From Candidatus Methylomirabilota bacterium (lineage in GTDB: Bacteria > Methylomirabilota > Methylomirabilia > Rokubacteriales > CSP1-6): a stretch of DNA of 64,000 nucleotides. Under the pieces are notes generated by a model. That model saw only the letters and a program-made list of their open reading frames with translations. It made no database searches and had not been told where the DNA came from. Of this stretch, positions 42,997 through 61,400 are shown one piece after another (the stretch's first letter is position 1; each line of letters begins with the position of its first letter). The translations under genes and the position numbers were made by a program. Location: the NCBI GenBank assembly GCA_046726415.1, contig JBKPAK010000020.1, positions 1,995-65,994 on the forward strand. Direction: 5' to 3'.

Positions 42997-43058
42997 CGGT
43001 CAGGGCCGGTGAAGCGAACGGTGAGCCGGGTGGCCGCCGGTGTGATCGAGGCCGCGGC

Positions 43059-44063
43059 TCACCGCTGGCGCACCGAGCAGGTCGGGGCCAGAGCGCGGTC
43101 GAGACACTGCCGAAGCCGGGCCCCCGTGACCGCGGCGTACGGCTCCTGGAGCATGATATCGGCTCGGCAGCTAGGTGACGCGGGGTGCACTTCGAGACCC
43201 GACCCGGCGAACGCCTCCCACTCCAGAGACCGGTCGTCGGCCAGGCTTACCTCGTCGGTGCTCGGCAGGAAGAGCGTGATCCGACCGGGGTAGACCCGCG
43301 GCAGGTACCGCCTGGCGGCCGCGGCGGTCGCCTGTTCCACGCGCAGCCGGTACACGCGCTCGGCACTCCCGCGCTCGATGCTTCGCCGCGCGACGAGATC
43401 TCCCACCTTGGTCCGCACGTATCCGGCGCGCTCGCCGCGCCCCAAGGTCATCAGGATCCGCCCGTGCCTCCTCAGCCGCTCCAACGCCAGTCGGACTTCT
43501 ACGCGGCTCCGATGGCGCCATCCCAGTGCCGTCGGAGAGGGCGTGGCGAATAGGGCGAGCAAGGCAACCTCGTGCGCCTGAGCTCGGAGCTGCTGAGCCA
43601 TCTCGAAAGCCACCACCCCGCCCAGGCAATAGCCGCCGAGCGCGTAGGGCCCTTCCGGCTGGAGGCCTCGCATCTCTGCCACAAAGTAGGCGGCAAGATC
43701 CTCGATCCGCTCGAGCGGAAGGCGCGTCCCGTCGAGCCCCGGTGGCCGCAAGGCGTAGAACGGCTGGTCGGTTCCCAGGTGACTGGCCAGGCGGACGTAG
43801 CAGAAGACGTCTCCATTGTGCCCGGGCACGGCGACCAGGCGGGGGCGGGAGCCGGCAGCCTGCATGGGAACCACCGCCGAGCTCTTCGACCATTCCTCAG
43901 CCGCCTGGAGAAACGCCACGATTTCGGGCTTGCGCAGGCCGAGCTCCTCGCGAAGCGCGAGGGTGAGGCCCCCCTGGGGTGCGTTACAGCGCAGGCGATC
44001 CCCTTCCACCCAGACCCGGATATCCCGGCTGCGCAGTTGGGAGAGGAACTCGGCCGTTGTCAC
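43059..44063 (-). CDS. Stand-alone thioesterase with N-terminal TubC-like NRPS docking domain; Cys in the nucleophile elbow
   Basis: aa 1-55 'VTTAEFLSQLRSRDIRVWVEGDRLRCNAPQGGLTLALREELGLRKPEIVAFLQ' is TubC_N-like. The alpha/beta-hydrolase core carries 'YALGGYCLGGVVAFEMAQQL'. The Cys146 codon TGC is at 43626-43628. GTG 44063 overlaps the NRPS stop (GTGA). Confidence 0.85.
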   Translation of the reverse strand: MTTAEFLSQLRSRDIRVWVEGDRLRCNAPQGGLTLALREELGLRKPEIVAFLQAAEEWSKSSAVVPMQAAGSRPRLVAVPGHNGDVFCYVRLASHLGTDQPFYALRPPGLDGTRLPLERIEDLAAYFVAEMRGLQPEGPYALGGYCLGGVVAFEMAQQLRAQAHEVALLALFATPSPTALGWRHRSRVEVRLALERLRRHGRILMTLGRGERAGYVRTKVGDLVARRSIERGSAERVYRLRVEQATAAAARRYLPRVYPGRITLFLPSTDEVSLADDRSLEWEAFAGSGLEVHPASPSCRADIMLQEPYAAVTGARLRQCLDRALAPTCSVRQR

Positions 44064-47000
44064 AGCTCGATCTCGTCTCGAGCCCCGATTGGTGCGGAGT
44101 GCTCTTTTCCCGAGGCCCACGTGAGGGTGTCCACGACCTCGGCCAGCCCGGCTACCGTGGGGGCGATGAAGAGGCTGCGCAGCGGCAGCTCCACGGCGAA
44201 TTGCTCGCGAGCGCGCGCGATCAGGCGGGCCGCCAGGAGTGAATGGCCGCCCAGGTCGAAGAAGTTATCGTGGATATCGACGCGATCCTGCTGCAGGACG
44301 TCGGCCCAGATGGCAGCCAGTGCCTTCTCGGTGTCGGAGCGAGGTGAAGCAGTCGGCCGATCGGCTCTCCCAGACTCGTCCCGGGCGGGAAGAGCCCGAC
44401 GGTCGACCTTGCCGTTGGGGGCTAACGGCAGCGCGTCCAGGACGACGAAGGCCGAAGGGATCATGTACTCGGGAAGCCGTCGGCGGAGGTGAACCCGAAG
44501 CTCGGTCTCGCTGAGGTCTGCTCCGGCTACGGCGGAGGTCACGTAGGCCAACAGCCGCTTGAGCTCAGGCGCGTCCTCCCGCAGCACGACCACACTCTCG
44601 CGAACGCCGGGACACCGGGCCAGGGCGTTCTCGACCTCGCCGAGCTCGATGCGGAAACCCCGGAGCTTGACCTGATGGTCGAGGCGGCCCAGGTAGTCGA
44701 GGGTGCCATCGGCCCGGTAGCGGGCGAGGTCACCGGTCTTGTAGAGGCGGGCGTTTGGATCGGCGCTGAACGGATGTCGGATGAACTTCTGGGCGGTGAG
44801 ATCGGGGAGGTGCAGATAGCCGTGGGCCAGGCCGCATCCTCCGATGTGCAGCTCGCCGGGAACGCCGACAGGTACGGGCTGCAAGTGGGGGTCGAGGAGG
44901 TAGATCTCGGTATTGGCGATGGGACGGCCGATGGGGACGGGATCGTCGGTGCCCGAGACGCGATGCAAGGTAGACCAGATGGTGGTCTCCGTGGGGCCGT
45001 AGAGATTCCAGACACTGACGCCGCGGCGGCAGAGCGCGGTGGCCAGGTCGGTCGAGAGGGCCTCGCCGCCGCAGAGGATCGCGAGGCCCGGCGTACCGGG
45101 CCAGCTAGCTTCCAGCATCAGACGCCACGTGGCCGGAGTGGCCTGCATGATCGTGACCTGGTGACGCGCGAGCAGGCCGACCAGCTGAGCTCCGTCGCTG
45201 GTGGTGTCGCGGCGGGCGATGATGACGCGAGCGCCCACGAGGAGCGGCAGGAACAGTTCCAATCCGGCGATGTCGAAGGACAGGGTGGTTACGGCCAGGA
45301 GGCAGTCGTGGGCGGTGACACCCGGCGTCCGGAGCATGCTGGCGAGGAAGTTGACCAAGGCCCGGTGCGGGACCTGGACACCCTTGGGCTGGCCGCTGGA
45401 GCCTGAGGTGTAGATGACGTAGGCAACGTCGTCAGCCGTAACCCCGCTGACGGGAGGGGCCTCGGGCTCGAGACTGATCAGATCCCAGTCGGCGTCCAGA
45501 TAGACCGTTTGGGCGTCGTGGTTGTCCAGCGTGTCCTCGAGCGCGCGCTGGGTGACAAGGATAGGGGCCTGGGCGTCGGCGAGCATGAAGGCCAAGCGCT
45601 CGGGGGGGTAGGTGGGATCCAGGGGCACATACGCTCCGCCCGCCTTGAGGATGCCCAGCACGCCGACGAGCATGTCGAGGGAACGCTCGACGCACAGGCC
45701 GACGCGGCAGTTGGGGCCGACGCCGCGACCGCGCAGGTGATGAGAGAGCTGGTTGGCGCGGCGGTGGAGCTCGCGGTAGGTGAGAGCGGCATCCTCGAAG
45801 ACAGCGGCGATCGCGTCGGGAGAGCACTCGGCCTGAGCCTCGAGGAGATCGGGCAGGGTGGCCTGCTGGGGATGGGCCGCTCCGGTGGCGTTCCAGTCGA
45901 CGAGGAGCTGCCGGCGCTCGTCGTCAGTGAGAAGCGGTAAGGCAGACAGGCGCTCGGTGGGACTGGCCACGATGCCTTCGAGCAGGACTCGGAAGTGGCC
46001 GGCGAGACGCGCGATGGTGGGGGGGTCGAACAGATCGGTGTTGTACTGCAGCGCGCCGCGCAGGCCCTCGCTGCTCTCGCGCAGGAACAGGGTCAGGTCG
46101 AACTCGGAGGCACCCGTTTCGGTGTCGATCGGCCTCGCGGTCAGACCCGGGAGGGCGAGGGCGATGGGAGCGGTGTTCTCCAGCACGAACATCACCTGGG
46201 CGAGCGGGGCGTGGCCGAGGCTCCGCTCGGGACGCAAGTCCTCCACGAGTTTCTCGAAGGGAAGATCCTGGTGGTCGTACGCGTCGAGGGTGACGCGGCG
46301 GACGCGGCCGAGCAGATCGCGGAAGGAGGGGTCGTCAGCTGCGGAGGTCCGGAGGGCCAGCGTATTGACGAAGACGCCTATGAGTGGCTCAAGGTCGGGT
46401 CGGGACCGCCCGGCAATCGGCGACGCCACGACGATGTCGCTCTGCCCGCTGAGGCGATGCACCAGGGTCTGGACGGCGGCGAGGAGGCACATAAAGAGGG
46501 TGACGTCCTCGCGGCGGCTCAGGGCAAGCAAGTCCGCGGTCAGCGCCGCGGGCAGGGCGAAGTAATGGTGGGCGCCGCGATAGCTCTGCACCGCGGGCCG
46601 GGGCCGATCCGTAGGGAGCTCGAGAAGCGGAGGAACGCCGGCGAGCTGCTGGATCCAGTAGGCCCGCTGGGCGGTCACCGCCGGTCCTTCGAGCATCTGG
46701 CGCTGCCAGAGGGCGAAGTCGGCGTACTGGATGGGCAGGGCCGGCAGAGGAGACGGCCGGCCGTGGGTGAAGGCTTCGTAGAGGGCAGCGAGTTCCTGGA
46801 AGAGCACGCCGAGAGACCAGCCGTCGGAGGCGATGTGATGGCTGACCAGGAGGAGGACGCACTCGTCGGCCGCCAGCCGAACCACGGCCGCCCGCAGCAG
46901 CAGATCGCGGGTGAGGTCGAAGGGGCGGCCAGCTTCCTGTCTGAGTAGCCGCCCTAGTTCGGTCTCGCGGGGAGCCGCAGGCCAGGCGCGCAAGTCGACG

Positions 47001-50000
47001 ACGGTTACGTCGGCTGGCCGAGACCCGGCGATGATTTGGACGGGGCTGCCGCGCTGAAAGGCGAAGGTCGTGCGCAGGGCCTCATGGCGCGCGACGAGCA
47101 AGTCCAGACTCTGCTGCAGGGCCGGGAGATCGAGGGCGCCCCCGAGGCGAACAGCGGAGGCGATGTTGTGGAGCGGGCTGTCGGGGGTGAGCTGGTTGAG
47201 GAACCACAGGCGCTGCTGAGCGAAGGAGAGCGGGCAGGGACCCGTATCGAGACGGCGCGGAATTGCCCCATTCTCTGCGCGCGGGGCGAGGTCGCTCGGC
47301 CGGCCGAAGGCAGCGCGGCCTGCGTCGATCAGCGTGGCCAGCTGCGCCACGCTGGGCGACTCGAACAGGGCGCGGAGGGACACGTCGGCGCCGAAGGAAT
47401 CCCGCAGTCGAGCCACCATCCGCATGCCGAGCAAGGAGTGGCCGCCCAGGTCGAAGAAGTTGTCATGGACGCCGACCTCGGGGAGGTCGAGCAGATCGCA
47501 CCAGATCTGAGCGATGAATCGTTCGGTCGCCGTGGTTGGCGGTGCGAGCCGCGGCACTGGAGCCCCGTCCGCAATGGCATCGGGCAACGCAGAGCGATCG
47601 ACTTTCCCGGAGGGCGTGAGCGGCAAGGTTGGGAGGGGCACGAAGACGGAGGGGATCATATAGTGCGGCAGCTTCTGCCCAAGGTAGGCGCGGAGGTCGG
47701 CCGCGGAGGGTTCAGCCCCGCCGCGGCCGACCACGTAGGCCACCAGGCGCTGGTCACCGGAGTGGCTCTCGCGGACGACCACGACTGCGTGGCCCACGAG
47801 CGGGTGCTGCCCCAGAACCGTTTCGATTTCCCCGAGCTCGATGCGGAAGCCCCGAATCTTGACCTGGTGGTCGAGACGGCCGAGGAAGTCGAGCTGTCCG
47901 TCGCTGCGGTAGCGGACGAGGTCTCCCGTCCGATAGAGGCGCGCGCCCGGGCGGCCGGCGAACGGATCCGCCACGAATCGCTCGGCGCTCAGGTCCGGTC
48001 GACCTCGGTAGCCGCGCGCCACCCCCGCGCCGCCGATGTACAGTTCGCCGGGCACGCCCACGGGCCGCGGTTGACCTCGCGGGTCGAGGACGTACACGCG
48101 GGTGTTGGCGAGCGGCCGTCCGATGGAAACGGCGCCGTCCCCGGGCGTCACTCGATGCGCGGTGGACCAGATCGTCGTCTCCGTTGGCCCGTACAGATTC
48201 CAGACCTCGCTGGCGCGGGAGAGGAGCTCCGCGGCCAAGCCGCGCGCGAGCGCTTCGCCCCCACACAGCGCCTTGAACGGCCGGCGGCCTTCCCAGCCGG
48301 CCTCGAGCAGGAGCCGCCACGTGGCAGGCGTCGCCTGCATCACCGTCGTTCCCGATCGCGTGATCCACTGCGCGAGCTGCCGGCCGTCCGCCGCCGCGTC
48401 CTGGCTGACCACCTCGACCTTGGCGCCGACGACGAGCGGCAGGATCAGCTCCAGCACCGCGATGTCGAATGAGATGGTGGTGACGGACAGCATCTGGTCC
48501 GATGGCGTCAGAGTCAGGATCTCCTGCATCGCGCCGAGAAAGTTCGCCACGGCTCGGTGAGGGATCTCCACGCCCTTGGGGCGCCCCGTCGAGCCCGAGG
48601 TGTAGATCGCGTAGGCCAGCGACTCCGGGTCGATCGGTCCCGAGGGGGGCCCGGCGCTGCGGTCAGAGAGTTCCGCACAGTCCGAATCCACATAGACGAC
48701 GGTGGTTGTCCCGGCCGGGACGCGATCGCGGAGCGAGGTCCGCGTCAGAAGAACGACCGCTTGGGAGTCCTCTAACATGAAGCCGAGCCGCTCGGTGGGG
48801 AACGTCGGATCGAGGGGCACATACGCCCCCCCCGCCTTGAGAACGGCCAGGAGCGCCACGACGAGATCTGCGGACCGCTCGAGACAGAGGCCGACCAGGA
48901 CGTCCGGCCCGACGCCGAGTTCACGAAGGCGATGCGCGAGGCGGTTGGCGCGGTGATTGAGCTGCTGGTACGTCACAGTTTCCCCGCCGCACACCACGGC
49001 CACGGCCTCCGGAGTCCGGCCCGCCTGGGCGTCGAAGAGAAGCGGCACGGTCGTGGCCGGATAGTCCCGCTCAGTGGCGTTCCACCGCCCTAAGATCTGA
49101 CCGCGATCCTCCGCTGACAGTACGCTGACGAACCCGATGTTCTGCTGCGGATCGGCGGCCAGCCCCTCCAGAACCGCCTGGTAGGAGCGAAGCCACTGCC
49201 GGATGGTATCGGACTCGAAGAGATCGATGTTGTAGTACCAATCCACCACCAGGTTCCCCGCGGACTGCGCGATGTTCACGTCCACGTCGAAGTTGATCGC
49301 GCGCCGAGGCGGGATGACGAGCTCGGCCTCGAGACCGGCGAACTTCGGCGCCACCGCGGGGGGGTCGAGATTGAAGATCACCGATGTGAGCGGCAGTCGG
49401 CTCCGATCGCGAGGGAGGCGGAGCTTCTCGAGCAGGCTGCCATAGGTGTAGCGCCGGTGATCGTGGACGTCGAAAACGATGGTCTTCAGCGAACTCAAAT
49501 AGTCCGCGAATGGCATGTCAGGCTCGAGGCGGCTCCGCACCGGCAAGAGGCTTGCGCAGTGTCCCACCACGTCGTTGGCGCCTTCTGCCGTCTGCCCTGC
49601 CACCACGATGCCGACGACGATGTCCTCGTGCCCGGTCAGCCGATGGAGCACCACCTTCAGTCCGGCCAGGAGCGCGGTGAAGAGCGTGCTGCCGCGCGAC
49701 GCGCCCAGGTGTCGCAGCGCACGGCCGAGCGCCGCCGGCAACGTGAGGCGTTCTCGGCCCGCCCGGTACGTCTTCACAGCGGGTCGCGGCCGGTCGGCCG
49801 GCAGCTCGAGGACGGGCACAGGGGCCGCGAACTGCTCGAGCCAGTACTGCTCGGTCGCTGTCCGGGCCGCGGTGCCCTCGAGCTCGCGCTCCTCGCGAGC
49901 ATAATCGGCGAACTGCCTGGCCGGACCCAACGGGGCGGTCCGACCCTGGCGGACGGCTGAATAGAGAGTCCCGATCTCCTCGAGCAAGATTCCGAGCGAC

Positions 50001-50503
50001 CATCCGTCCACCGCGATGTGGTGCACGGATACGAGGAGGACGTGGTGCTCCTCGCCGAGCCTCGCGATGCGGGCGCGCAGCACGGGGCCCCGACCGAGGT
50101 CGAATGGGTCCCACACGTCCTGCCGCGCGAGTTCGTCGAGCAGCCCCTCTCGTTGCGCGGGCGGTCGCGCCGACAGGTCGTCCAGGGGCACATCCACCGG
50201 CATGAACGCCTCCAGGATGCACTCCTTTCCATCCGCGCTGAATCGGCTGCGCAGGGCGTCATGTCGCGCAACGAGCTGCTGGATCGCCTCCCGGAGCGCG
50301 CTCACCTGACACGGCCCGCGGAGGTGTACGGCCACCGCGTCGGCGAACGCCCGCGATCCGTCCTCGCCCATCTGGGTGGCCAGCCAGATCTCCCGCTGCG
50401 CCTCGGTCATCGGCAAGGTGGTCGGGGCGGATTGCTCCTGTCTGAACGGATCGAAGTCGACCGGCGTCAACGTGAGGGAAGAGAGACGCGGCTCGGTGGT
50501 CAT
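44060..50503 (-). CDS. NRPS, two modules: C-A(Gly)-T-C-A(Gly)-T
   Basis: 2147 aa from ATG 50503. Approximate domains: C 49139-50416 (HHIAVDG); A 47549-49066; T 47318-47536 (GGHSL); C 45959-47242 (HHIASDG); A 44384-45886; T 44129-44341 (GGHSL). A-core motifs are 'YTSGS(T/S)G.PKG', 'NLYGPTE', 'GELxIGG', 'YxTGD', 'GRxDxQVKxRGFRIELGE' and 'GKVDR'. The first 184 codons of the track ORF are read-through over the PKS gene. Confidence 0.95.
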   Translation of the reverse strand: MTTEPRLSSLTLTPVDFDPFRQEQSAPTTLPMTEAQREIWLATQMGEDGSRAFADAVAVHLRGPCQVSALREAIQQLVARHDALRSRFSADGKECILEAFMPVDVPLDDLSARPPAQREGLLDELARQDVWDPFDLGRGPVLRARIARLGEEHHVLLVSVHHIAVDGWSLGILLEEIGTLYSAVRQGRTAPLGPARQFADYAREERELEGTAARTATEQYWLEQFAAPVPVLELPADRPRPAVKTYRAGRERLTLPAALGRALRHLGASRGSTLFTALLAGLKVVLHRLTGHEDIVVGIVVAGQTAEGANDVVGHCASLLPVRSRLEPDMPFADYLSSLKTIVFDVHDHRRYTYGSLLEKLRLPRDRSRLPLTSVIFNLDPPAVAPKFAGLEAELVIPPRRAINFDVDVNIAQSAGNLVVDWYYNIDLFESDTIRQWLRSYQAVLEGLAADPQQNIGFVSVLSAEDRGQILGRWNATERDYPATTVPLLFDAQAGRTPEAVAVVCGGETVTYQQLNHRANRLAHRLRELGVGPDVLVGLCLERSADLVVALLAVLKAGGAYVPLDPTFPTERLGFMLEDSQAVVLLTRTSLRDRVPAGTTTVVYVDSDCAELSDRSAGPPSGPIDPESLAYAIYTSGSTGRPKGVEIPHRAVANFLGAMQEILTLTPSDQMLSVTTISFDIAVLELILPLVVGAKVEVVSQDAAADGRQLAQWITRSGTTVMQATPATWRLLLEAGWEGRRPFKALCGGEALARGLAAELLSRASEVWNLYGPTETTIWSTAHRVTPGDGAVSIGRPLANTRVYVLDPRGQPRPVGVPGELYIGGAGVARGYRGRPDLSAERFVADPFAGRPGARLYRTGDLVRYRSDGQLDFLGRLDHQVKIRGFRIELGEIETVLGQHPLVGHAVVVVRESHSGDQRLVAYVVGRGGAEPSAADLRAYLGQKLPHYMIPSVFVPLPTLPLTPSGKVDRSALPDAIADGAPVPRLAPPTTATERFIAQIWCDLLDLPEVGVHDNFFDLGGHSLLGMRMVARLRDSFGADVSLRALFESPSVAQLATLIDAGRAAFGRPSDLAPRAENGAIPRRLDTGPCPLSFAQQRLWFLNQLTPDSPLHNIASAVRLGGALDLPALQQSLDLLVARHEALRTTFAFQRGSPVQIIAGSRPADVTVVDLRAWPAAPRETELGRLLRQEAGRPFDLTRDLLLRAAVVRLAADECVLLLVSHHIASDGWSLGVLFQELAALYEAFTHGRPSPLPALPIQYADFALWQRQMLEGPAVTAQRAYWIQQLAGVPPLLELPTDRPRPAVQSYRGAHHYFALPAALTADLLALSRREDVTLFMCLLAAVQTLVHRLSGQSDIVVASPIAGRSRPDLEPLIGVFVNTLALRTSAADDPSFRDLLGRVRRVTLDAYDHQDLPFEKLVEDLRPERSLGHAPLAQVMFVLENTAPIALALPGLTARPIDTETGASEFDLTLFLRESSEGLRGALQYNTDLFDPPTIARLAGHFRVLLEGIVASPTERLSALPLLTDDERRQLLVDWNATGAAHPQQATLPDLLEAQAECSPDAIAAVFEDAALTYRELHRRANQLSHHLRGRGVGPNCRVGLCVERSLDMLVGVLGILKAGGAYVPLDPTYPPERLAFMLADAQAPILVTQRALEDTLDNHDAQTVYLDADWDLISLEPEAPPVSGVTADDVAYVIYTSGSSGQPKGVQVPHRALVNFLASMLRTPGVTAHDCLLAVTTLSFDIAGLELFLPLLVGARVIIARRDTTSDGAQLVGLLARHQVTIMQATPATWRLMLEASWPGTPGLAILCGGEALSTDLATALCRRGVSVWNLYGPTETTIWSTLHRVSGTDDPVPIGRPIANTEIYLLDPHLQPVPVGVPGELHIGGCGLAHGYLHLPDLTAQKFIRHPFSADPNARLYKTGDLARYRADGTLDYLGRLDHQVKLRGFRIELGEVENALARCPGVRESVVVLREDAPELKRLLAYVTSAVAGADLSETELRVHLRRRLPEYMIPSAFVVLDALPLAPNGKVDRRALPARDESGRADRPTASPRSDTEKALAAIWADVLQQDRVDIHDNFFDLGGHSLLAARLIARAREQFAVELPLRSLFIAPTVAGLAEVVDTLTWASGKEHSAPIGARDEIEL

Positions 50504-53500
50504 CGCCTCTCGCCCACCTCTAGGTACTTGCCGGGCCGATCGGGGTCGGGGATGAACCAGGCCTCGCGCCCACTCGGGTCCCGCCCCCTTCGCGCCCCGG
50601 GCAGCGGTGGGGTGGCCGGCCCAGTGCTGGGTAGCAGACCGACCTCCTGCATCTCCGCCACCGTCTCGGCGAACGCCTGGACCACGCGATCGATGTCCTC
50701 GTCCGAGTGCGCCGTACTCAAGAAGGCCGGTCGCCCTTCCCAGACGTGGAGGCCTTTGGCCCGGAGCCACGCGAAGACCACCGGGGCGAACGGATAGTCG
50801 GGCGGCAAGCCTATGCAGAAGAAGGAGCTGAAATGCGTGAGGCGGATCGGGGCCTGCGCCCGCGCGACGACGGCCCTCAGCGCCTCGACCAAGCGCGTCG
50901 TCCGCTCGTTGAGCCGCCGCTGTAGCTCTGGCCCCTCTTCCTCGAGGTGGATCAGGCAGGCCCGGGCGGCGGCCAGGGCCAACGGGTGGCGCACGAAGGT
51001 CCCGGCGAAGAAGGTGACACCGATCTCTGGAAAGGTAAGATCGCCATACTGCCACATGCCCCCGTCGAGAGCGTCCATGAACTCGCGCCGGCCGGTCACG
51101 ATCCCGATCGGTAAGCCTCCGCCGATGACCTTGCCGTAGGTGGCGAGGTCCCCCTGAATGCCGAGCATGGCTTGGACGCCTCCAGGGTGGGCGCGGAAGC
51201 CGGTGACCACCTCGTCACAGATGAGAGCCGTGCCCGAACTGGCGGTGAGCTCGCGGAGCTCGCGCAGGAACTCCCAGGGCTGGAGGTCGGGCCTCCGGCT
51301 CTGCACTGGCTCGACGAGCACCGCGGCCAGCTCGCCCGCCTGAGCCCGCAGCAGGTCGAGGGAGGCCGACTGACCGTACTCGAGGACGATGACATTGTCC
51401 GCCATCCCAGCGGGGATGCCCGGGGCGATCGGGCGCGAACGCAGTACCCCATCGCTCAGGGTGGGGCGCACGAGCACTTCGTCGAACACGCCGTGGTAGG
51501 CGCCGGCGAACATGGCGATCCGGTCGCGCCCGGTCACCGTGCGAGCCAGCCGGATGGCCGCCATCACCGCCTCAGAACCCGTGTTGCAGAAGGCCGCGCG
51601 GTCCATCCCGGTGAACGCGCAAAGTCGCCGGGCCACCTCGCCGGCCAGCGGTGATTGGGGACCGATCTCAAATCCCAGCCGCAGCTGGGCCTCAACGGCC
51701 GCGGTCACGAACGGCGGGGCGTGGCCGAAGAGGACCATTCCGAAGCCGTTGGTCAAGTCGACGTACTCGTTCCCATCCACGTCCCACAGCTTCGAGCCGG
51801 CGGATCGGACGGTGACGATCGGGTAGACCGCTTCCTTCCAAGGCAGACGGAAGCCCGCCACCGAACGCGGATCGGCCAGGTGGCGACGGTGCTGTTCAGC
51901 CAGGCGCTTGGAGCCCTGGGTGCGCGCCGTGTAGCGGGTGATGAAGGCCTCCAGGCTTCTCTGCTGGGACGGTGTGAGGCCGCCACCCGTGCCCTTGTCG
52001 ATCGGCCGGTAGGGCCCGAAGGCCCGGGACTCTTGACTCGCGGAGTCGGCCAAGGCGGCTTGGTAGGCCGGGCTCACGGGCACGCCGTCAGGCGGCCGCT
52101 CTGGGGTTGCGCGGGCGCCTCCGCCGGCGGATGCCGCAGGGGCGCCACTGCGCAGGAGGTCGAGCTGTCTGGACATCAGCTCGAGCTGCTGGGCGACCAG
52201 CCATTCCACGGAACCGACGGCGGCGTCGGGTTTCTCGCGCCGCGGAACCTCGAAGCGAGAGCCATCCTCCTGGCTTTCCGGCCGGACAGCCGACCCTCGA
52301 GGTACAACCTCGCTCGACTCGGTCGTAGACGAGACGGGGACACGGACGGAGGGGGCCGGCGACGGGTTGGGCGGCAAGGTGCGATCCAACCAATCCGCCA
52401 ACGCTCCGGGCGACGCGAGATCCTCGAGGAGCTGTCGGAAGCTGATCTTCACGCCGAAGGCCTTCTGTATCGCCGCGCTGGCCTGAGTGAGGCTAAGGGA
52501 GTCCAGGCCGGCCTCCACAAACGGGGTGTCGTGGTCCAGCGCCGCGGCGTCGATGCCGGAAAGCTCCGCGAACAGAGCTCGCACGCGGCCCAGTAGGATA
52601 GCGTGCCGACCTGGCGTCGGGGTGACCTCGACAGGAGTGTCTGCCATGCTCTCCTCGCTCCGACTGTCGTCCGCGGCGGCCGTCGGAATCCCCGCCATCC
52701 CGACCGCCGTCACGGTTTCCGGCGACGCCTCCGGCGCTCGTTCGGCGCTGGTGGGCGGGTCGATCCAGAACCTCTGCCGCTCGAACGGATAGGTCGGCAG
52801 CGGCAGGCGACGGCGCCGCTGCCCGTCGTGGACCGCCGCCCAGTCGATGTCGGCTCCGGCGATCCAAAGACGTCCCAGGGCATCGAGAATCGATTCGATG
52901 TCAGGGCCCGCATTCTCGTCGAGCGGCAGCGAAGCGATCACTGTCTGGCCTGCGGACCGATCGGTGTGCTGTCGAGCCAGCGCGGTGAGGCTCCGGCCCG
53001 GGCCGACCTCGAGGAGCAGTTGGCTGCCTTCGCGCACGAGCAGAGCCACGCCGTCGGCGAATCGGACAGGTTGCCGGAGCTGTCGCGCCCAGTACGCTGC
53101 GTCCATTGCCTCTGCGGCGGTGATCCACTGCCCGGTCACGCCGGACACCCACGGCACCTGTGGAGGCTTGAGGCGGACACCTCGCATGACCGCCTCGAAT
53201 GGCTTGAGGACGGAGTCCATCATGGAAGAGTGGAAGGCGTGCGAGGTCGGAAGCCGGCGGAAGGCGACGCCGCGTGCGCCGAGTTCCGCCTCAAGAGCCT
53301 GAACCGCCTCCGCGTTCCCCGCCACGACCGTGACCGCGGGGCCGTTAAGCGCGGCCACCGATAGGGTGCCAGACAGAAGCGGCTCGACTTCAACCGCGGG
53401 GAGTCGCACGGCGAGCATCACGCCGCCCGGCATGCTCTGCATGAGCCTCGCCCGCTCGGCGACCACCCGCAGGGCATCCTCACGCGAGAGGACGCCGGCC

Positions 53501-55422
53501 AGGCACGCCGCCACGTATTCGCCGAGGCTGTGGCCAATCATCGCCTGGGGCTTCACCCCCCAGCGCATCCAGAGGTCGGCCAGCGCATACTCGATGGCGA
53601 ACAGGGCGGGCTGGGTGACGCGCGTTTCCTCGAGGAGGGCCGCGGCCGCCGCGGCGCCAGTGGCATCCGGATAGAGCACCGTTCGTAGGTCCAGCTCCAG
53701 CTCCGGCTGCAGAGTCTCCGCGCATTCGTCGACGGCGGTCCGAAAGGCCGCCTCGCCCTGGTAGAGTCCCCGCGCCATGTTCACCCGCTGCGCGCCCTGC
53801 CCGGGGAACAGGAAGACCACGGGCGCCGCGCGGGCATCGCACTGGGTGCTCACCAGGTGCTCGGCCTCCGGCCGGCGTAGCGAGGTGATGGCCTCGGCAC
53901 CATCACGGCACACCAGCATCCGCCGATGGGCGAATCGCCGGCGGCCGGCCTGGAGCGTGAAGGCCACATCGGCGAGGTCGAGTCCCGGCGACGTCTCCAG
54001 GCACCGGGCGAGGCTGGCCGTGGCCTGTTCGAGGGCAGAGGCCGTCCTTGCCGAGATCACCAGCAACTGCTCGCGCCGGGCCGGCGCCGGACCCGGCGGT
54101 GTTGGCGCCTCTTCCAAGACCACGTGAGCGTTGGTGCCGCCCACGCCGAAAGAGCTCACCCCGGCTCGGCGCGGCGTCCCGCCCGGCGGCCAGTCAACCA
54201 GCCTCGTGGCAACGTAGAACGGGCTGTTCTCCAATTCGAGCTTCGGATTCGGCGCTGTGAAGTGCAGACTGGGGGGAATCTTTCGATGCCGCAGGGCCAT
54301 CGCGGCCTTGATCAGGCCGACGATCCCCGCCGCCGCGTCCAAATGCCCGATGTTCGTCTTCACCGACCCGACGGCGCAGAAGCGAGTCGCGGAAGTACCG
54401 GCCCGGAAGGCCTGGGTGAGCGCGGCGATCTCTACCGGGTCCCCAAGGGGGGTCGCGGTGCCGTGCGCCTCGACCAGGGAGATGGTTTCCGGCTCCACGC
54501 CAGCGAGAGACTGGGCCAGAGCGATGCACTCGGCCTGGCCATCCACGCTGGGCGCCGTGAAGCTCACCTTGGTGGCGCCATCGTTGTTGAGCGCCGCCCC
54601 CTTGATTACCGCGTAGACGTTGTCGCCGTCGGCCAGTGCGTCGGCCAGGCGCTTGAGCACGACGATGCCGACCCCATTGCTGAATACGGTGCCCGCGGCC
54701 TCGACGTCGAAGGCCCGGCAGTGGCCGTCAGGGGACGTGATGGCGCCTTCCTGATAGAGATATCCGCGTTGCTGGGGGAAGGTGATGGACACGCCGCCGG
54801 CTAGCGCCGTGTCGCACTGATAGTCGATCAGGGCCTGCACGGCCTGACAGACAGCCACCAGCGAGGTCGAGCAGGCGGTGTAGACGCTCACGCAGGGCCC
54901 GCGCAGATCCAGCTTGTAGGCGACCCGGGTGGCCAGGTAGTCCTTTTCATTGCCCATCATGACAAGCAGACCGCCCGCCCGCTGGATCGCGACCGGATTG
55001 GGATACAAGTTCTCCAGGAAGTAGGTGTTGTTGCTCATCCCAGCCCAGACGCCGATCGCACCCCGGTACATCCTCGGGTCATAGCCCGCATCCTCGAGCG
55101 CGGTCCAAGCCGTTTCCAGGAACACCCGCTGCTGAGGATCCATGACGGCCGCCTCGGTGGGGTTGATGCCGAAAAACGCGGCATCGAACAGCTCGGCGCC
55201 GGGCAGGACACCCCGCGCCGGCACGTAATTCGGGTCCTTCCTCATACCGGGTGATTCGGCCCGACAGGGCTCTAGCTCGTCGGTCGCGAAGCGAGAAATC
55301 GACTCGACTCCGCCCTCAATGTTCCGCCAGAATTCCCCCACGTCCCGGGCACCGGGGAAGCGTCCGGCCATCCCGATGATGGCCACGCCGTCCATGGGAT
55401 CTCCGTGATCCGAGTGCGCCAT
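50500..55422 (-). CDS. Type I PKS module fused to a class III (PLP) aminotransferase: KS-AT-ACP-AMT
   Basis: 1640 aa. KS 54112-55392 ('YTACSTSLVA', 'EAHGTATPLGDP', 'KTNIGHLDAAAG'). AT 52933-53823 ('FPGQGAQ', 'GHSLGEY', 'SHAFHS', the malonyl-type HAFH). ACP 52387-52620 ('GLDSLSL'). AMT 50653-52020 ('DLTNGFGMVLFGH', 'NTGSEAVMAAIRLAR', 'LICDEVVTGFR', 'YGKVIGGGLP'). I recognised no KR, DH, ER or MT motifs. Confidence 0.95.
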   Translation of the reverse strand: MAHSDHGDPMDGVAIIGMAGRFPGARDVGEFWRNIEGGVESISRFATDELEPCRAESPGMRKDPNYVPARGVLPGAELFDAAFFGINPTEAAVMDPQQRVFLETAWTALEDAGYDPRMYRGAIGVWAGMSNNTYFLENLYPNPVAIQRAGGLLVMMGNEKDYLATRVAYKLDLRGPCVSVYTACSTSLVAVCQAVQALIDYQCDTALAGGVSITFPQQRGYLYQEGAITSPDGHCRAFDVEAAGTVFSNGVGIVVLKRLADALADGDNVYAVIKGAALNNDGATKVSFTAPSVDGQAECIALAQSLAGVEPETISLVEAHGTATPLGDPVEIAALTQAFRAGTSATRFCAVGSVKTNIGHLDAAAGIVGLIKAAMALRHRKIPPSLHFTAPNPKLELENSPFYVATRLVDWPPGGTPRRAGVSSFGVGGTNAHVVLEEAPTPPGPAPARREQLLVISARTASALEQATASLARCLETSPGLDLADVAFTLQAGRRRFAHRRMLVCRDGAEAITSLRRPEAEHLVSTQCDARAAPVVFLFPGQGAQRVNMARGLYQGEAAFRTAVDECAETLQPELELDLRTVLYPDATGAAAAAALLEETRVTQPALFAIEYALADLWMRWGVKPQAMIGHSLGEYVAACLAGVLSREDALRVVAERARLMQSMPGGVMLAVRLPAVEVEPLLSGTLSVAALNGPAVTVVAGNAEAVQALEAELGARGVAFRRLPTSHAFHSSMMDSVLKPFEAVMRGVRLKPPQVPWVSGVTGQWITAAEAMDAAYWARQLRQPVRFADGVALLVREGSQLLLEVGPGRSLTALARQHTDRSAGQTVIASLPLDENAGPDIESILDALGRLWIAGADIDWAAVHDGQRRRRLPLPTYPFERQRFWIDPPTSAERAPEASPETVTAVGMAGIPTAAADDSRSEESMADTPVEVTPTPGRHAILLGRVRALFAELSGIDAAALDHDTPFVEAGLDSLSLTQASAAIQKAFGVKISFRQLLEDLASPGALADWLDRTLPPNPSPAPSVRVPVSSTTESSEVVPRGSAVRPESQEDGSRFEVPRREKPDAAVGSVEWLVAQQLELMSRQLDLLRSGAPAASAGGGARATPERPPDGVPVSPAYQAALADSASQESRAFGPYRPIDKGTGGGLTPSQQRSLEAFITRYTARTQGSKRLAEQHRRHLADPRSVAGFRLPWKEAVYPIVTVRSAGSKLWDVDGNEYVDLTNGFGMVLFGHAPPFVTAAVEAQLRLGFEIGPQSPLAGEVARRLCAFTGMDRAAFCNTGSEAVMAAIRLARTVTGRDRIAMFAGAYHGVFDEVLVRPTLSDGVLRSRPIAPGIPAGMADNVIVLEYGQSASLDLLRAQAGELAAVLVEPVQSRRPDLQPWEFLRELRELTASSGTALICDEVVTGFRAHPGGVQAMLGIQGDLATYGKVIGGGLPIGIVTGRREFMDALDGGMWQYGDLTFPEIGVTFFAGTFVRHPLALAAARACLIHLEEEGPELQRRLNERTTRLVEALRAVVARAQAPIRLTHFSSFFCIGLPPDYPFAPVVFAWLRAKGLHVWEGRPAFLSTAHSDEDIDRVVQAFAETVAEMQEVGLLPSTGPATPPLPGARRGRDPSGREAWFIPDPDRPGKYLEVGERR

Positions 55423-55423
55423 G

Positions 55424-58400
55424 CTACGGGTTCCGGCCGATCCTTCGCGGTCGGGATTGCGCGTCCCGCTGGCGCCGAGCCCGATCTCGAACGTGGCTCA
55501 GGCAAGATGCCTCGTTCGGCTGGTGGCTGAGGTAGCCGGCCAGCGCACTGACGGTGGGGTATTGGAGCAGCGCCACGATGGGAAGGTTCAGGCCCAGCCG
55601 GGCCTGGAGCCGGGTGTGGGTCTCGACGAGCAGAATAGAGTGCCCGCCGAGATCGAAAAAGTTATCGTCGAGCCCGACCCGCTCTACTTCGAACAGCTCC
55701 TGCCAGATCGCGGCGATGGCCTGCTCGAGCCGCGTGCGCGGGGCGAGATACGCCGCGCCCTCCTTCGAGCGGTGATCGAGCCCCGCGACCGCCAGCTGCC
55801 CGTCTGGAGGTGGAGGCAGCACCGCCAGGATGTCGGCGATCGTCCGTCGCGTGGCGGTAGTCATGGCCTCGAGGACCGCGGCCAAAGCGGCGAGCGAGCG
55901 GCGGATCGCCGCGCCGTCGAACTGGTTGCGGCGGTAGATCATCTTCAGCCGGAGCTCAGGAGCCGGCGTCACCACCAGAGTCAACGGATAGTTGGTCGCC
56001 TCCGGCATCGAGACCGGAGCGATCTCGACGGTTGGTCCCAGCCGGCGCGCCTCCTGGCTGACGGCGTAGTTCTGGAAGACGAGCAGACTGTCGAACAGGC
56101 GAAGCCGCCACGGAATGCCCGTCCAGGCCTGAATCTCGAGCGGGGAGACGTACTGGTGGAGCACGGCATCGGCCTGCTTGTCCTGTGCCTCGGCGAGCCA
56201 GACCGGTACAGACATCTCCGGCCTGACCTGGAGCCGGATGGGGAGATTGCTCACGAAGGTCCCCACCATCGATTCGATACCGGCCACCTTAGGTGGTCGC
56301 CCGGAGAACGTGACCCCGAAGACCACGTCGGCCTGGCCACTGCGATGGCTCAGGAGTAAGCCCCATGCCCCTTGGACGAGCATGCTCAAGGTGAGGTGAT
56401 AGCTCCGCGCAAACGAACGGAGGGCCGCCCCAGTCCGCTCTGACAGCCTCACCTCTTCCTCGGCGTGCGACTGCCCTGCGCCCTCTGAGCGTCCCGCCGG
56501 CGCAGGCGGCAAGCCGAGCGGGGTGGGCGCGGTGAAGCCCGCGAGCCAGCGCCGCCAGAAGGCCTCGGTCTCCGTACTGTTCCGACCTTCCAGCCAGCCG
56601 ATGTAGTCGCGGTACGCGTGGGGGGGCGCGAGTCTGGCATCTCGGCCCGCGCGGAGGGCTTCGTAGCACTCCGACAGCTCGGAGAAGATTAGGGGCCACG
56701 ACCAGCCGTCGACGTGGAGGTGATGGGTGGTCCAGAGAAGGTGGAACGTTTCGTCGGCCAACCGGAGGAGCGTCACGCGCGTGAGTGGAGCCCGCGACAG
56801 GTCGAAGCCCTGAGCGGCGTCCGACTCCACGAGTTCGGCCAGTCGCGTGCTCTGGTCGGTGGCGGAGAGAGCACTCCAGTCGTGCTCGCTCCACGGCAGC
56901 GCCACGCGGCGGACGACGACCTGCAACTCCCGCTGGCCGTCGGAGACGAAGGCGGTGCGGAGAATCGAGTGCCGATTGACGACCAGTTCCCACGCGCGCC
57001 GCAGCGCCGGCGCGTCCACCGAGCCGTGCAGGCGGTACTGCCACTGCTCCAGCCCGGAGCCGGCGGCCTCCATCGAGTGAAACAGGCGCTGCATGGGAGA
57101 CAACGCGTATATGTCTTCCACCTCCTCGAGGTCGCAGGGAAGCCGGTCGAGAAGAGCCAGGTCGAACGCCGCCGGCGCGACGTGGGCCGGCCGTGCGTCA
57201 GTTGCCCCTCGCGTCTCACAGGCCAGGAGCACTTCGCGCACAGCCTCGACGAAGCTCTGGGCCAATCGCTCCACCGTCTGCCGGCGGTGGATGTTTTCGC
57301 TGTACGTCCACCGCATCTGGAGCCGTCCGTGAATGACCAGGGCCAAGAGGTCGATCAGGTGCCGCCGCGGAGCTCGTGGGCTGTGCCAGGGGCCGGCGGG
57401 TTCCGCGGCGAAGCGGAAGAGGCCGGAGCCGGCCAGAACCTGGTCGAACTGACCGAGGTAGTTGAACAGCACCGCGGGCTGGGGATGGTCGCCGAGGAGG
57501 GTGGCGGTGGTCGGATCGCCGAGGTAGCGAAGGACGCCGTAGCCAATGCCTCGGCCCGGGACCTGCCGCAGTTGCTCCTTCACCGCGTGGAGCACGTCGG
57601 CGAGGGGACCACGCGGGGGCTCGAGCCGCAGCGGGAAAATGCTGGTGAACCAACCCACGGTCCGCGAGAGATCCACATCGTCGAAGATCGCCTCCCGACC
57701 GTGGCCCTCGACATCCACGCAGAGGGACCCGCCCTTCGTCCATCCGGTGAGGCACCGCGCCAGCGCCGCCAACAAGACGTCGTCGACCTGCGCGCGGAAT
57801 ACTTGGGGCACCCGCTGCAGTAGCGCACGTGTCTCCTCGATCCCGATGGACCACGTCACGGTTCGAGCGGACATCTCGGTGTTGGCACCGCCCTCGAAGT
57901 CGACAGGGAGGCGGGCGGAGTCCACGTTCGCGGTGGCCAGCCAATGACTGAGCTGATTCCGGCAGGCTGGCCACTGCGCGTACTCAATGAGCCGCTGCGC
58001 CCAACGCCGATACGACGTCGTCCGGGCGGGCAGCCGCACCGTGTCGCCCCCATGCAGTGCTCGGTAGAGCGTGTCCACATCCCCCAAGAGGATTCGCCAG
58101 GACACCCCATCGATCACCAAATGATGGGCGATGACAAGGAGCCGGCCCGGGCGCCGGGGGCCGAGTCCGAAGTGGGCTATTCGCAGGAGTGGGCCATCGG
58201 CGATGTCGAGAGTGCGCTGGAGCTCAGTCGCCTTCGCTTCGATGGCGGCTGGCAATTCGGCGTCTGGCCGTCCAGAGAGGTCTATCTCCGCGACAGAGAT
58301 GGTCCCGCCATCGTTGCTATAGCGCTGCTCCCAGCCGTGGGCGCCGCGCCGGAACCGCAGCCGGAATGAGTCGTGGTGATCGACGACGTGCTGGCTTGCC

Positions 58401-61400
58401 GCTTCCAGAGCCTGTACATCCACGTCGGTCGGCACCTCGAACAGGAAGGCTTGGTTCCAGTGATCAGGCTCCGGTAGTTCCTGCTCGAAGAACCAGCGCT
58501 GGATCGGAGTGAGGGGAACGCACCCCTCCGCTCGATGGCCGTCGTCCTGCGGCGTCGCGACTGCCGTCACCGCAGCCAGCTCGGCGATCGTCGAGTGCTG
58601 GAACAGCTCCCGAGGCGTGAACGATAGACCAGCCTGACGGGCGCGCGCGATGATCTGGATCGCGAGAATCGAGTCCCCGCCCAGCTCGAAGAAGCTGTCG
58701 TGGACGCCAACCCGCTCGAGCCCGAGCACGGCGGCCCAGATGCCGCTCAGGGTCTCCTCGATGGCCGTCCGGGGAGCCACGTAGCCCCCACGCACGTCGG
58801 GACGCGTCTGATCGAGTGCGGGCAACGCCTTTCGGTCCACCTTCCCGTGGCCGGTTAGCGGGAGCCCGTCGAGCCGCACGAACGCGGCGGGCACCATGTA
58901 GTCGGGAAGCTTGGCCCGCAGGAAGCCGCGTATCTCGTCGGCCATGAGCGGCGCGTCGCGGTCAGCGACGTAGTACGCCACCAGCCTCTTGTCGCCCGGG
59001 ATGTCCTCACGGACGATGACCACCGACTCCCGCACCGCCGAGTGCTGGGCCAGCGCCGATTCGATCTCCCCCAACTCGATCCGGAAGCCCCGAATCTTCA
59101 CTTGGTCGTCGATTCGGCCGAGGTACTCGAGATCCCCATTGGGCAGCCGCCGTGCCAAGTCCCCCGAACGGTAGAGCCGCGCGCCCGGAGCGGCAGTGAA
59201 CGGGTCGGCGATGAATCGCTCGGCGGTGAGCTCGGGCCGGTTCAGGTAGCCACGCCCCACGCCGGCACCACCTATATAGATCTCCCCGGCCACTCCGATC
59301 GGGACGGGACGGAGCCAGCGATCCAGAACATAGACCTGGAGGTCTGGGATCGAACGGCCGATGACGCTGCCGCTGCCGGAAAGGACGTCGTTGAGCGCGA
59401 TCGGACGGTAGGTGACATGCACGGTGGTCTCGGTAATGCCGTACATGTTGATGAGCCGAGGCGGCCGATCTCCAAACCGCTCGAACCAGGGCCGCAGCGC
59501 TTGCAGGTCCAGCGCCTCGCCGCCGAAGATAACGTACCGAAGGGCGAGCCCACGCGACTCGCCCTCCAGTATCACCTGCATCAGCTGTCGAAATGCCGAC
59601 GGCGTCTGGTTCAACACCGTCACCTGCTCCCGGTACAACAGCTCGGCGAACGCCTCCGGCGAGCGACTCACCCAGTAGGGCACCAGCACGAGCCGGCCTC
59701 CGTACAAGAGCGCGCCCCACAGCTCCCACACGGAAAAGTCGAACGCGTACGAGTGGAACAGGGTCCATGCGTCCGCGGGGCCGAAGCGGAACCACGGGTC
59801 GGTGGCGTCCATGAGCCGGACGACGTTCCGATGGGTGATGAGGACGCCCTTGGGACGCCCGGTGGACCCTGACGTGTAGATGACGTAGGCCAGGCTGTCG
59901 GCCGTAGCGCCGCCGGAGACATTGTCTTCGGCTGCGCCGCCGTCAGCTGCCTCTTCGCCCGAATCGCCCTCGAGCAGGACCATCCGAGCTCGATGCGGGG
60001 GCAGTGCGGAGGCCAGTTCGCCCTGGGTCAGCAGAACGGCGACTTCGGAATCCTCCAGCATGAAGGCGAGGCGATCCTTGGGGTACCGGGGATCGAGTGG
60101 GAGATAGGCGCCCCCCGCCTTCAGGATGGCGATGATCGCCATGACCATGTCCACGGATCGCTCGACGAAGAGCCCGACCAAAACCTCCGGCCCCACGGAG
60201 AGCTCCCGCAGGCGGCGAGCCAGCCGGTTTGCGCCGCGGTTCAGCTGTCGGTAGGTCAGCGCCCGCCCATCATGGATCACCGCCACCGCGTCCGGCGTTC
60301 GCGCAACCTGCCGCTCGAATCGCTGGTGAATGCACAAGCCGTTGGCGGGGCCGATGGGGAGTGGGTTCGGGCTAGGCACCAGCTCGGCGCGCTCTGTCGC
60401 GGTGAGATACGGCACCGCCCGCAGCGGTTGGTCTGCGGCAGTGATCATCCCCTCGAGAAGGAGGCCGACATGATCCAGCATCCGCGCCGCGGTGTCGTCG
60501 TCGAATCGCCGGCGGTCGTACTCCAGGCGAAGGAGCAGCTCGGCGTCCGCATAGGCAATGAAGGTGAGCGGGTAGTTCGTCTGCCCGAGGTAGCGAAAGC
60601 GCCGGCCGGTCCACTCTCCTCCCTGCGCGCGCAACGCGGTGTTCAGGAGGTAGCGCTCGTAGACCACGAGACTCTCGAAGAGCGGCGTACCGCGCGGCAC
60701 GTCGCTCCAGTCCTGGATCTTGACCAGCGGTGTGTGCTCGTGCGCGCGCAGGGCCACCCCTTGGCGGCGAAGCTCTCGCAGCCAGGGCACGAGCGGCGCG
60801 TCGGATTTCACGCGAACCCGAACGGGCAGGGTATTGATGAACAGCCCCACCATGTCGTCGGCACCCTCGAGGGACGAGCGCCGACAAGCCCGGGTGGCCC
60901 CAAAAACGATGTCGTCCTCGCCGCTGTAGATGTGAAGCAAGAGCGCCCAGGCGCCTTGCAGCAGGGTGTTGACCGTGAGCTCATGCTTCTCGGCGAAGTC
61001 CCGGAGCCCGGCGGTGACGTCGGCGGCCACTCGTGCCTCGTGGGCGCCGTGAGTTCCCTGCGCGGCAGGTGCCGTGCGCGGGTTTTGCCCCACTCGCAGC
61101 GGCGTCGGTGTCGTGAAGCCTTTGAGCAGGCGCCGCCAGTACTCTTCCGCGCGGGCGGGATCCTGTCCATGCAGCCACTCGATGTAGTCGCCGTACGGCC
61201 GCGGCAGGGGAAGGTCGAGCTCCCGCCCGTCGCGGATCGCCTCGTAATAGGCGAAGACCTCCCGGAGCACGAGCGGGAAGGAGCGCCCGTCGAGCACGGC
61301 GTGGTGGAACGTCCACAACAACCGGGCCACTCGGCCGGGTAGCCAGACCAGGGTCAGGCGCATCAGCGGCGCCTGGCTCACGTCGAAGCCTCGCCGGCGA

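Follow-up and report, generated by a model that had tools for sequence, protein, structure and literature searches.

The last gene of a nonribosomal peptide synthetase (NRPS) and polyketide synthase (PKS) operon of a Candidatus Methylomirabilota bacterium, at positions 43059..44063 on the minus strand of a 64,000-nucleotide stretch of contig JBKPAK010000020.1 (assembly GCA_046726415.1; hereafter the window), most probably encodes a thioesterase (TE) that is docked onto the assembly line, acts in trans, depends on a cysteine nucleophile and releases the finished chain without the canonical Asp and His. The open reading frame (ORF) and its translation give a discrete protein of 334 amino acids plus stop codon, in which a beta-hairpin (TubC-type) docking domain precedes an alpha/beta-hydrolase thioesterase domain. 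There are precedents both for fusions of docking domains to TEs and for TEs with a Cys nucleophile; the apparent novelty lies in a large clade, drawn from uncultured soil bacteria, in which the Cys is invariant and the canonical His and Asp are lacking. A TE clade that combines an invariant Cys and a GHNGD loop with the absence of the canonical Asp and His was not encountered in literature searches aimed at His-less Cys-TEs, GxCxG TEs and trans-acting docked TEs. All features given below lie on the minus strand unless stated otherwise.

The gene starts with a GTG codon (44063-44061), stops at 43059-43061 and has a coding-like GC content at third codon positions (GC3) of 0.82, the GC content of the window being 68%. 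Its start overlaps the TGA stop (44062-44060) of the upstream gene, NRPS-2, in the tetranucleotide GTGA (...GAG CTG TGA / GTG ACA...), a coupling that the preliminary description of this DNA had already reported and to which we add the minus strand; the N-terminus lines up with 120 homologues starting M/V-x-x-x-E-F-L. The genes downstream lie on the opposite strand and converge on the TE, which is therefore the last gene of the operon. The docking domain (residues 1-58; 43890..44063) is recognised by Pfam TubC_N (PF18563, residues 5-53, E=2e-18), by matches in the Protein Data Bank (PDB) to the docking domains of AerJ, TubC and EpoB, and by the alpha-beta-beta-alpha-alpha secondary structure of the AlphaFold2 (AF2) model, with helices at 3-12, 35-43 and 45-58 and strands at 16-20 and 23-27, so that the earlier proposal of a TubC-type domain holds. 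This model, built from 31 homologues, has a predicted local distance difference test (pLDDT) score of 93 and a predicted template modelling (pTM) score of 0.85, with a dip in pLDDT at the linker that follows the docking domain. The thioesterase domain (residues 64-334; 43062..43874) shows a type-I-like fold over residues 64-325, with a lid of three long helices (residues 177-252) inserted between beta6 and beta7, and Foldseek assigns a probability of 1.0 to its matches with Sky-TE (skyllamycin), AB3403, GbnD6-TE, Pks13-TE, EntF, NocB-TE and Vlm2. Pfam Thioesterase (PF00975) covers residues 75-188 (E=1.3e-26) but only positions 2-115 of the 226 in the profile, and the C-terminal half of the TE is therefore atypical. 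No specific NCBIfam family was found for the TE, the partial matches to the Pks13 and EntF models falling far under their cut-offs. As judged from sequence and model, the protein has the fold, the lid, the G-x-S/C-x-G elbow and the sole terminal release position of a type I assembly-line TE, and lacks the canonical His and Asp.

The nucleophile elbow, G144-Y-C146-L-G-G149 (43617..43634), reads GGYCLGG, and Cys146 is encoded by a TGC codon at 43626-43628 (the plus strand reads 'gca'), as previously described. A Cys occupies this position in all 121 aligned close relatives and in 186/186 of the wider GHNGD-type sequences, named after a loop discussed below; it is also found at the elbow of P0001, an independent metagenome protein that is 98% identical. 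Since the residue is shared by P0001 and by 121/121 relatives, Cys146 is no sequencing error. According to the alignments, the remainder of the canonical triad is missing from this TE and across its family. At the canonical Asp site after beta6, known as position I, the Asp of the AB3403 'MIDTRAP' motif aligns to Ala173 (43545..43547); among the 121 relatives this position is Gly in 82, Glu in 15, Ala in 9, Asp in 9 and Thr in 6. The canonical His site falls in the loop after beta8, residues 295-308 (ASPSCRADIMLQEP; 43140..43181), located by alignment to AB3403 'PGDHSSIMY' and Sky-TE 'RCSHPHMM'. Here Ala301 aligns to the catalytic His of Sky-TE ('CSHPHMM') and lies within one residue of the AB3403 His ('GDH'); position 301 is Gly in 72 relatives, Ser in 10, Ala in 7 and His in a single one, and any His at 300-303 is found in only 15/121. 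The alignments thus agree with the earlier reading of 'LALFATPSP' at the Asp site and 'CRADIML' at the His site. The same loop carries Cys299 in 109/121, and C299, G295-P296 and M304-L305 are nearly invariant in the family.

The preliminary description had also suggested a Cys146/Asp270/His303 triad with the spacing of type II TEs, that is, a C-terminal His and an Asp after beta7 as in RifR, ObiF and SulM. This solution has some appeal, given that Asp270 and Glu271 follow beta7 in the protein, that His293 closes beta8, that an acidic residue stands somewhere in 267-272 in 87/121 relatives, and that the family Gly at position I is likewise found in ObiF1 (Gly1173). It is nevertheless scarcely credible. 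Residue 303 is Ile, and the nearest His, His293, lies inside the strand, eight residues ahead of the canonical His position. Neither partner is conserved among the 121 relatives, where position 293 is Tyr in 47, His in 25 and Phe in 10, and position 270 is Glu in 34, Asp in 17 and Ala in 12. The loop after beta7 holds no conserved acid, 30/121 relatives having none at all, and the matches to ObiF1 (5e-6) and RifR (0.019) are weak. As for other residues that might serve, only H200 (97/121), Y215, R239, Y253 and W282 stand out in the C-terminal half when conserved Asp and His are sought there; H200 was rejected as a catalytic His, being located in the lid and not invariant, and W282 and Y253 also occur in canonical TEs.

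The second pillar of the proposed model is the interaction between the docking domain and the C-terminal tail of NRPS-2. Pfam and core motifs agree with the earlier statement that NRPS-2 (44060..50503; 2147 aa) ends in a thiolation (T, carrier) domain and a short tail without a cis TE, and they detect neither a reductase nor a terminal condensation (C) domain in it. The protein ends 60 residues past the last carrier-domain Ser, with a tail that reads ...WASGKEHSAPIGARDEIEL / ...TLTWASGKEHSAPIGARDEIEL; the stretch ASGKEHSAPIGARDEIEL (44063..44116), in peptide form SAPIGARDEIEL, finishes with R-D-E-I-E-L, which stands 18 aa beyond the T domain and is predicted to be a short linear docking motif. 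A logo was built from about 60 related loci with a readable upstream gene. In these, the upstream gene ends with a carrier domain and then a short tail of consensus R-E-E-I-E-L: position -6 is R in 50/60; -5 is E in 38/60 and V in 19/60; -4 is E in 60/60; -3 is I in 41/60, V in 9/60 and F in 6/60; -2 is E in 43/60; and -1 is L in 35/60, I in 14/60 and V in 9/60. The start of the TE gene and the stop of the upstream gene share 4 bp (ATGA or GTGA) in nearly all of them. The tail motif is co-conserved with the docking domain, and it was not found at the other subunit C-termini of the window.

The structure of the rhabdopeptide complex shows the five C-terminal residues of the tail as an added strand beside beta2 of the docking domain (PMC6195595, PMC9113145), held by two salt bridges and by buried hydrophobic side chains (PMC6195595; review PMC9113145). 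The present pair fits these published recognition rules, a strand beside beta2 and two salt bridges, on the evidence of its residues. Strand beta2 of the docking domain contains R23-L24-R25, with R25 invariant in the 31-sequence alignment and present in 116/121 of the larger one, and R23 in 104/121; both would be well placed for pairing with the two Glu of the tail. We propose that the docking domain would bind the extreme C-terminus of NRPS-2, five or six residues long (R-D-E-I-E-L), as a strand beside beta2, that the two tail Glu would pair with Arg23 and Arg25, and that the TE would thereby be kept beside the final carrier domain. An analysis of mutual information between positions of the tail and of the docking domain was uninformative, its signal reflecting mainly column entropy and phylogeny. 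In TubC, EpoB, the Kj12 rhabdopeptide NRPS and enacyloxin Bamb_5915, the partner is likewise a short post-carrier tail in which charged and hydrophobic residues alternate, and in Bamb_5915 the docked enzyme is, as here, a chain-release catalyst. The present system differs from these pairs in that the docked catalyst is a thioesterase, and in that two Glu would face two Arg where known docking pairs have one salt bridge of each polarity. A survey covering over 1400 docking pairs already includes beta-hairpin docking domains at the N-termini of TE domains (Kosol et al. 2019, cited through PMC9113145); we found no characterised docking-domain-TE fusion in the literature.

The position of the gene and its sequence relationships bear on whether the enzyme releases the product at all. 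It could be a type II editing TE, clearing stalled or mis-acylated carrier domains while release takes place by other means, as might be expected of a discrete protein in a Pfam family, PF00975, that spans both TE types. RifR, RedJ, SrfD and YbtT are type II TEs of this family and are also discrete; unlike the present protein, they have no docking domain, have kept the Ser-His-Asp triad and serve assembly lines equipped with a cis release domain of their own. Here, by contrast, the terminal module has no other release domain, either in the window or at about 80 related loci, and the docking domain would target only the tail of the last carrier domain. The closest matches are type I enzymes (AB3403, 4.5e-29; Sky-TE, 1e-26) as opposed to type II ones (SrfD, 1.6e-8; RedJ, 1e-4), and C-A-T-TE proteins such as P0182 and P0218 (A, adenylation domain) carry the same GHNGD / GYCAG catalytic domain in cis as their terminal TE. 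An enzyme confined to editing is thus very unlikely, and the earlier assignment as a discrete chain-release TE stands. The chain could also be released onto something other than itself: in an acyltransferase, the Cys-bound chain would be passed to an external acceptor (a sugar, an amine or a lipid), much as trehalose receives the chain from the Pks13 TE. Both the fold and the profile comparisons recover Pks13-TE, stronger nucleophiles would be preferred by a Cys enzyme that has no His to activate water, and glycosyltransferase or polysaccharide genes lie downstream at some loci. We regard this possibility as quite improbable, however, given that no acceptor-related neighbour is conserved, that the downstream genes differ at every locus inspected and that those of the window converge from the other strand.

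The chemistry of release can be approached from the predicted end of the chain. NRPS-2 has the order C-A(Gly)-T-C-A(Gly)-T according to Pfam, core motifs and specificity codes, and both of its A domains carry the code DILQLGLIW (glycine). These codes were read from an alignment with GrsA, a procedure that reproduced 9/10 known GrsA code residues, all but Lys517. With a glycine code in both A domains, the chain would end in -Gly-Gly, with no beta-hydroxyl or beta-amino group on the last residue, and a beta-lactone or beta-lactam of the ObiF or SulM kind is therefore excluded for that residue. The link to strained rings drawn in the preliminary description from ObiF and SulM consequently finds no support in the last two modules, nor in the match values (5e-6 for ObiF1 vs 4.5e-29 for AB3403). 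Upstream of NRPS-2, a PKS module (50500..55422) with a ketosynthase (KS), an acyltransferase (AT), an acyl carrier protein (ACP) and an aminotransferase (Pfam ketoacyl-synt, Acyl_transf_1, PP-binding and Aminotran_3) would, from its domain content, install a beta-amino group two residues ahead of the chain end. In iturin/mycosubtilin and microcystin, the beta-amine from a PKS aminotransferase module is the nucleophile for ring closure by the TE. By analogy, the beta-amino group is most likely the releasing nucleophile in this operon, with hydrolysis to a linear acid, or ring closure by a different nucleophile, as less likely alternatives. The Gly-Gly-ended peptidyl chain would pass from the phosphopantetheine thiol to Cys146 by transthioesterification, and attack by the PKS-installed beta-amine would then give a small lactam of ten ring atoms, or of seven in one-module relatives. 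The iturin/mycosubtilin and microcystin lines resemble the present one in their KS-AT-ACP-aminotransferase module, class III aminotransferase and in-chain beta-amino acid; they differ in having a cis Ser-His-Asp TE and in forming large rings, whereas only two Gly follow the beta-amino acid here and a single residue does so in ten related loci.

Across 51 related loci for which the last residue was predicted, it is Gly in about 25, Asp in 8, Thr in 6, Asn in about 6 and Gln in 4, with a further 6 having a Gly-like code that lacks Asp235; at seven loci a PKS module, not an NRPS, ends the line. Given such varied last residues and PKS endings, the TE family can be considered a general terminator. 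The six loci with the unusual code (L006, L008, L019, L026, L028 and L032) have terminal A domains reading G-[IV]-L-Q-x-G-M-[IV]-W, with Gly for Asp235. In A domains, Asp235 binds the alpha-amino group of the substrate, and this code suggests a substrate other than an alpha-amino acid.

With no canonical Asp after beta6 or beta7 and no canonical His after beta8, the enzyme cannot use standard triad chemistry, and the question arises of which residue, if any, acts as the base. The loop after strand beta3, G81-H82-N83-G84-D85 (43809..43823; codons GGG CAC AAT GGA GAC), offers a candidate. H82 and D85 are found in 121/121 relatives and N83 in 120/121, and the residues invariant in the family are G81, H82, G84, D85, C88, C146, G148, G149, Y253 and W282. 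Of these, C88, W282 and an aromatic residue at 253 are common to canonical relatives also, so that the GHNGD loop is left as the distinctive polar feature. H82 aligns to the Ala of Sky-TE 'HPAGG' and to the Ile of AB3403 'PIGGS', a position whose residue, in the surfactin TE structure, contributes its backbone NH to the oxyanion hole; the side chain of His82 would therefore lie next to the nucleophile. A His in the beta8 loop co-occurs in only 26/186 GHNGD-type members having H82. Conversely, the clade members without H82 (P0172, P0192, P0211 and P0227) have a beta8-loop His in 4/4 cases, an association with a hypergeometric probability of 5e-4, uncorrected for phylogeny. Judged from these sequences, the pattern suggests that one His is needed and is supplied by either loop. 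We hypothesise that His82, perhaps oriented by Asp85, would form a thiolate-imidazolium pair with Cys146 and act as the base, an assignment that we put forward tentatively and with slightly more doubt than confidence. The fuller proposition, in which a clade restricted to uncultured soil bacteria abandoned the Ser/Cys-His-Asp geometry shared by alpha/beta hydrolases, moved its catalytic His from the beta8 loop to the oxyanion loop after beta3, and acquired a Cys146-His82 pair that favours aminolysis by PKS-installed beta-amines, with closure of small or medium lactams, over hydrolysis, is more speculative still. If so, a relocated catalytic His would, to our knowledge, be without precedent among alpha/beta-hydrolase thioesterases.

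The same docked enzyme could also work with no general base of its own, the thiolate being stabilised by the helix dipole and the oxyanion hole only. His82 and Asp85 would then be structural, as parts of the oxyanion loop and a helix cap; the amine or hydroxyl of the substrate would resolve the thioester unaided, and loss of the water-activating His would serve to suppress hydrolysis. Transfer from thioester to thiol is near energy-neutral, as considered in the discussion of ObiF (PMC6668435). The canonical His is lost only alongside a Cys nucleophile: relatives with the beta8-loop His have either Ser or Cys, GHNGD-type sequences only Cys, and the beta8-loop His is kept in 15/15 Ser-type relatives with an HxxGG loop and in one Ser-type relative without it. 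The counterpart of D85 in canonical TEs is the Ser or Gly ahead of helix A. Against a purely structural role, H82 is retained in every one of the 121 relatives while its neighbours vary in distant ones (GHSGD, GHKGD, GHNGY, GHSGA), and the beta8-loop His is regained in all four members that lack H82, which suggests that one His is needed. We consider base-free catalysis a serious contender, albeit one that is rather less probable than a role for His82.

Several observations weigh against the docked, triad-less enzyme with His82 as its base and the beta-amine as its nucleophile, and the first two of them equally favour catalysis without a base. P0007 has GHNGD together with canonical Glu173 and His301, which places the origin of GHNGD ahead of the loss of the canonical His. 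The 'DSG' group, a distinct set of Cys-TEs in C-A-T-TE proteins of about 1390 aa, has no His at either site, so that Cys-TEs may work without any His. His82 could be the shifted structural His of the common 'HPxGG' motif, with Asp85 as a helix cap. At some positions that hardly vary in the family, the protein studied here departs from the rule: A-S replaces G295-P296, R replaces P75 and V replaces F77. Lastly, the family also ends Asp, Asn, Gln and Thr lines and PKS modules, and release by a beta-amine cannot therefore be general.

Two of these groups of sequences deserve a description of their own. P0007 (locus L001, 10001-11005; 52% identical) combines Glu at position I, the beta8-loop motif 'CDHATML' and the GHNGD loop, and may be an evolutionary intermediate. 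The 'DSG' group comprises P0219, P0221, P0223, P0233, P0238, P0244, P0252 and P0256, most of them of the stated length, with the elbow G-A/V/T-C-M-G-G, Glu at position I (I-E-T-W) and 'D-S-G' at the catalytic-His site; nearly all are His-less at the oxyanion and beta8 loops, P0256 having a His just ahead of D-S-G. On this comparison, the group is apparently a second His-less Cys-TE lineage.

The family to which the TE belongs is large. Through a word-indexed search, 606 relatives were collected; the best 120 are about 330 aa long, nearly all consist of TubC_N and TE, and they are 41-53% identical to the query, bar the one 98% match. Profile searching over 1.84 billion cluster representatives yielded 50,328 matches, 11,789 of them below 1e-30, and a pattern scan over one genome per species located 506 GHNGDVFC-type loci. 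The earlier remark that Cys-TEs are rare thus fails for environmental genomes, this Cys clade alone being present in 506 species-level genomes. The best 80 of the 506 loci all come from metagenome-assembled genomes (MAGs), mostly from soil, and are distributed over Binatia, Acidobacteriota/Terriglobia, Gemmatimonadota, Verrucomicrobiota, Burkholderiales/Rhodocyclaceae, Armatimonadota and Eisenbacteria; none of these 80 carries a functional name. The closest genome relatives (about 50% identity) are Binatia and 'Deltaproteobacteria' MAGs. In related loci the TE directly follows the terminal module, whether NRPS or PKS, and the gene order ...T / docking domain / TE, with no other release domain, is found in the window and at every related locus examined. 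At 13 related loci a KS-AT-ACP-aminotransferase module lies one or two modules ahead of the TE, and 10 of those 13 share the order C-T-KS-AT-AMT-C-A-T-docking-TE (AMT, aminotransferase). Cys-TE-like domains have also been observed mid-synthetase and not C-terminally in P0185, P0188, P0193, P0210 and P0216 (2700-4500 aa), with the motifs HGAGGGMF / GGYCFGG / G-A-H-E and Asn at position I; the domains lie at about residues 1070-1360, or about 2100-2385 in P0188.

The other genes of the operon are the phosphopantetheinyl transferase gene, NRPS-1, the PKS-aminotransferase gene and NRPS-2, and all five genes including the TE overlap or almost abut. The phosphopantetheinyl transferase (61741..62571; Pfam ACPS and AASDHPPT_N) is the first gene and overlaps the start of NRPS-1 (55424..61753), which Pfam and core motifs resolve as C-A(Thr-like code)-T-(E-like C)-C-T. 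The partial code of its A domain, taken from 'FDFSVWE' and 'NMYGITE', fits DFWNIGMVHK, which we take to be the code for Thr. The ATG of NRPS-2 overlaps the stop of the PKS gene (ATGA). The C-terminal part of NRPS-1 (55424-57000, minus strand) is a 'C-T' module without an adenylation domain that directly precedes the KS-AT-ACP-aminotransferase module. The order C-T-KS-AT-AMT-C-A-T-docking-TE recurs at L012, L015, L029, L042, L043, L046, L048, L050 and L071, in MAGs of Terriglobia/Acidobacteriota, Vicinamibacterales, Betaproteobacteria and Actinomycetota, a recurrence that, at the level of gene order, points to a conserved orphan gene-cluster family. Beyond the operon, a mandelate racemase / muconate-lactonizing-enzyme gene at 41553-42996 on the plus strand is apparently split across three reading frames, with MR_MLE_N in 41553-42374 and MR_MLE_C pieces in 42468-43178 and 42742-42996. 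Either decay into a pseudogene or frameshifts in the assembly would account for the split, and the gene ends 62 bp away from the TE stop codon. The GC skew reaches +0.14 to +0.15 across 44001-48000, the 3' two-thirds of the NRPS-2 gene, against -0.07 to +0.05 elsewhere in the window. Upstream of the phosphopantetheinyl transferase gene, an ORF at 62794-63591 (minus strand) has no Pfam match and a low GC3 of 0.66; it is overlapped by an ORF at 63172-64000 on the plus strand, whose GC3 of 0.80 is coding-like.

Established Cys-TEs comprise ObiF, SulM and the uncharacterised AB3403 (PMC11298585; PMC6668435), and the last of these has both the canonical Asp and the canonical His (PMC11298585). AB3403, a C-A-T-TE protein of Acinetobacter baumannii (PDB 4ZXH/4ZXI), is the best match among solved structures (4.5e-29) and shares with the present TE the Cys nucleophile (GGWCFGG), the F-C-Y motif of helix A, the equivalent of Trp W282 and the type I fold. 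It differs in keeping the Asp after beta6 ('MID') and the His after beta8 ('GDH'), in being a cis fusion and in having Ile at the His82 site. The ObiF1 and SulM TEs also have a Cys nucleophile, and ObiF1 shares the Gly at position I; unlike the present family, they keep the canonical His and have their Asp after beta7, at position II (PMC11298585). Their substrates end in a beta-hydroxy or beta-amino residue, as opposed to the C-terminal Gly predicted here, and the SulM elbow reads Q-C-N where the present one reads Y-C-L.

Whether an assembly line delivers a linear acid, a strained ring or a macrocycle is decided by its release enzyme, and such enzymes are in wide use for the preparation of cyclic peptides. 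The clade described here raises a mechanistic question, that of catalysis without a triad in enzymes that always have Cys and are without the standard Asp and His. It may also provide a practical part, with a portable docking tag and a simple partner motif of six residues, in that a trans-acting TE of this type could be directed to any carrier protein by the addition of ...REEIEL. The clade is present in hundreds of genomes of Acidobacteriota, Gemmatimonadota, Verrucomicrobiota, Binatia and Burkholderiales, and knowledge of its release chemistry would aid the prediction of products for many orphan gene clusters.

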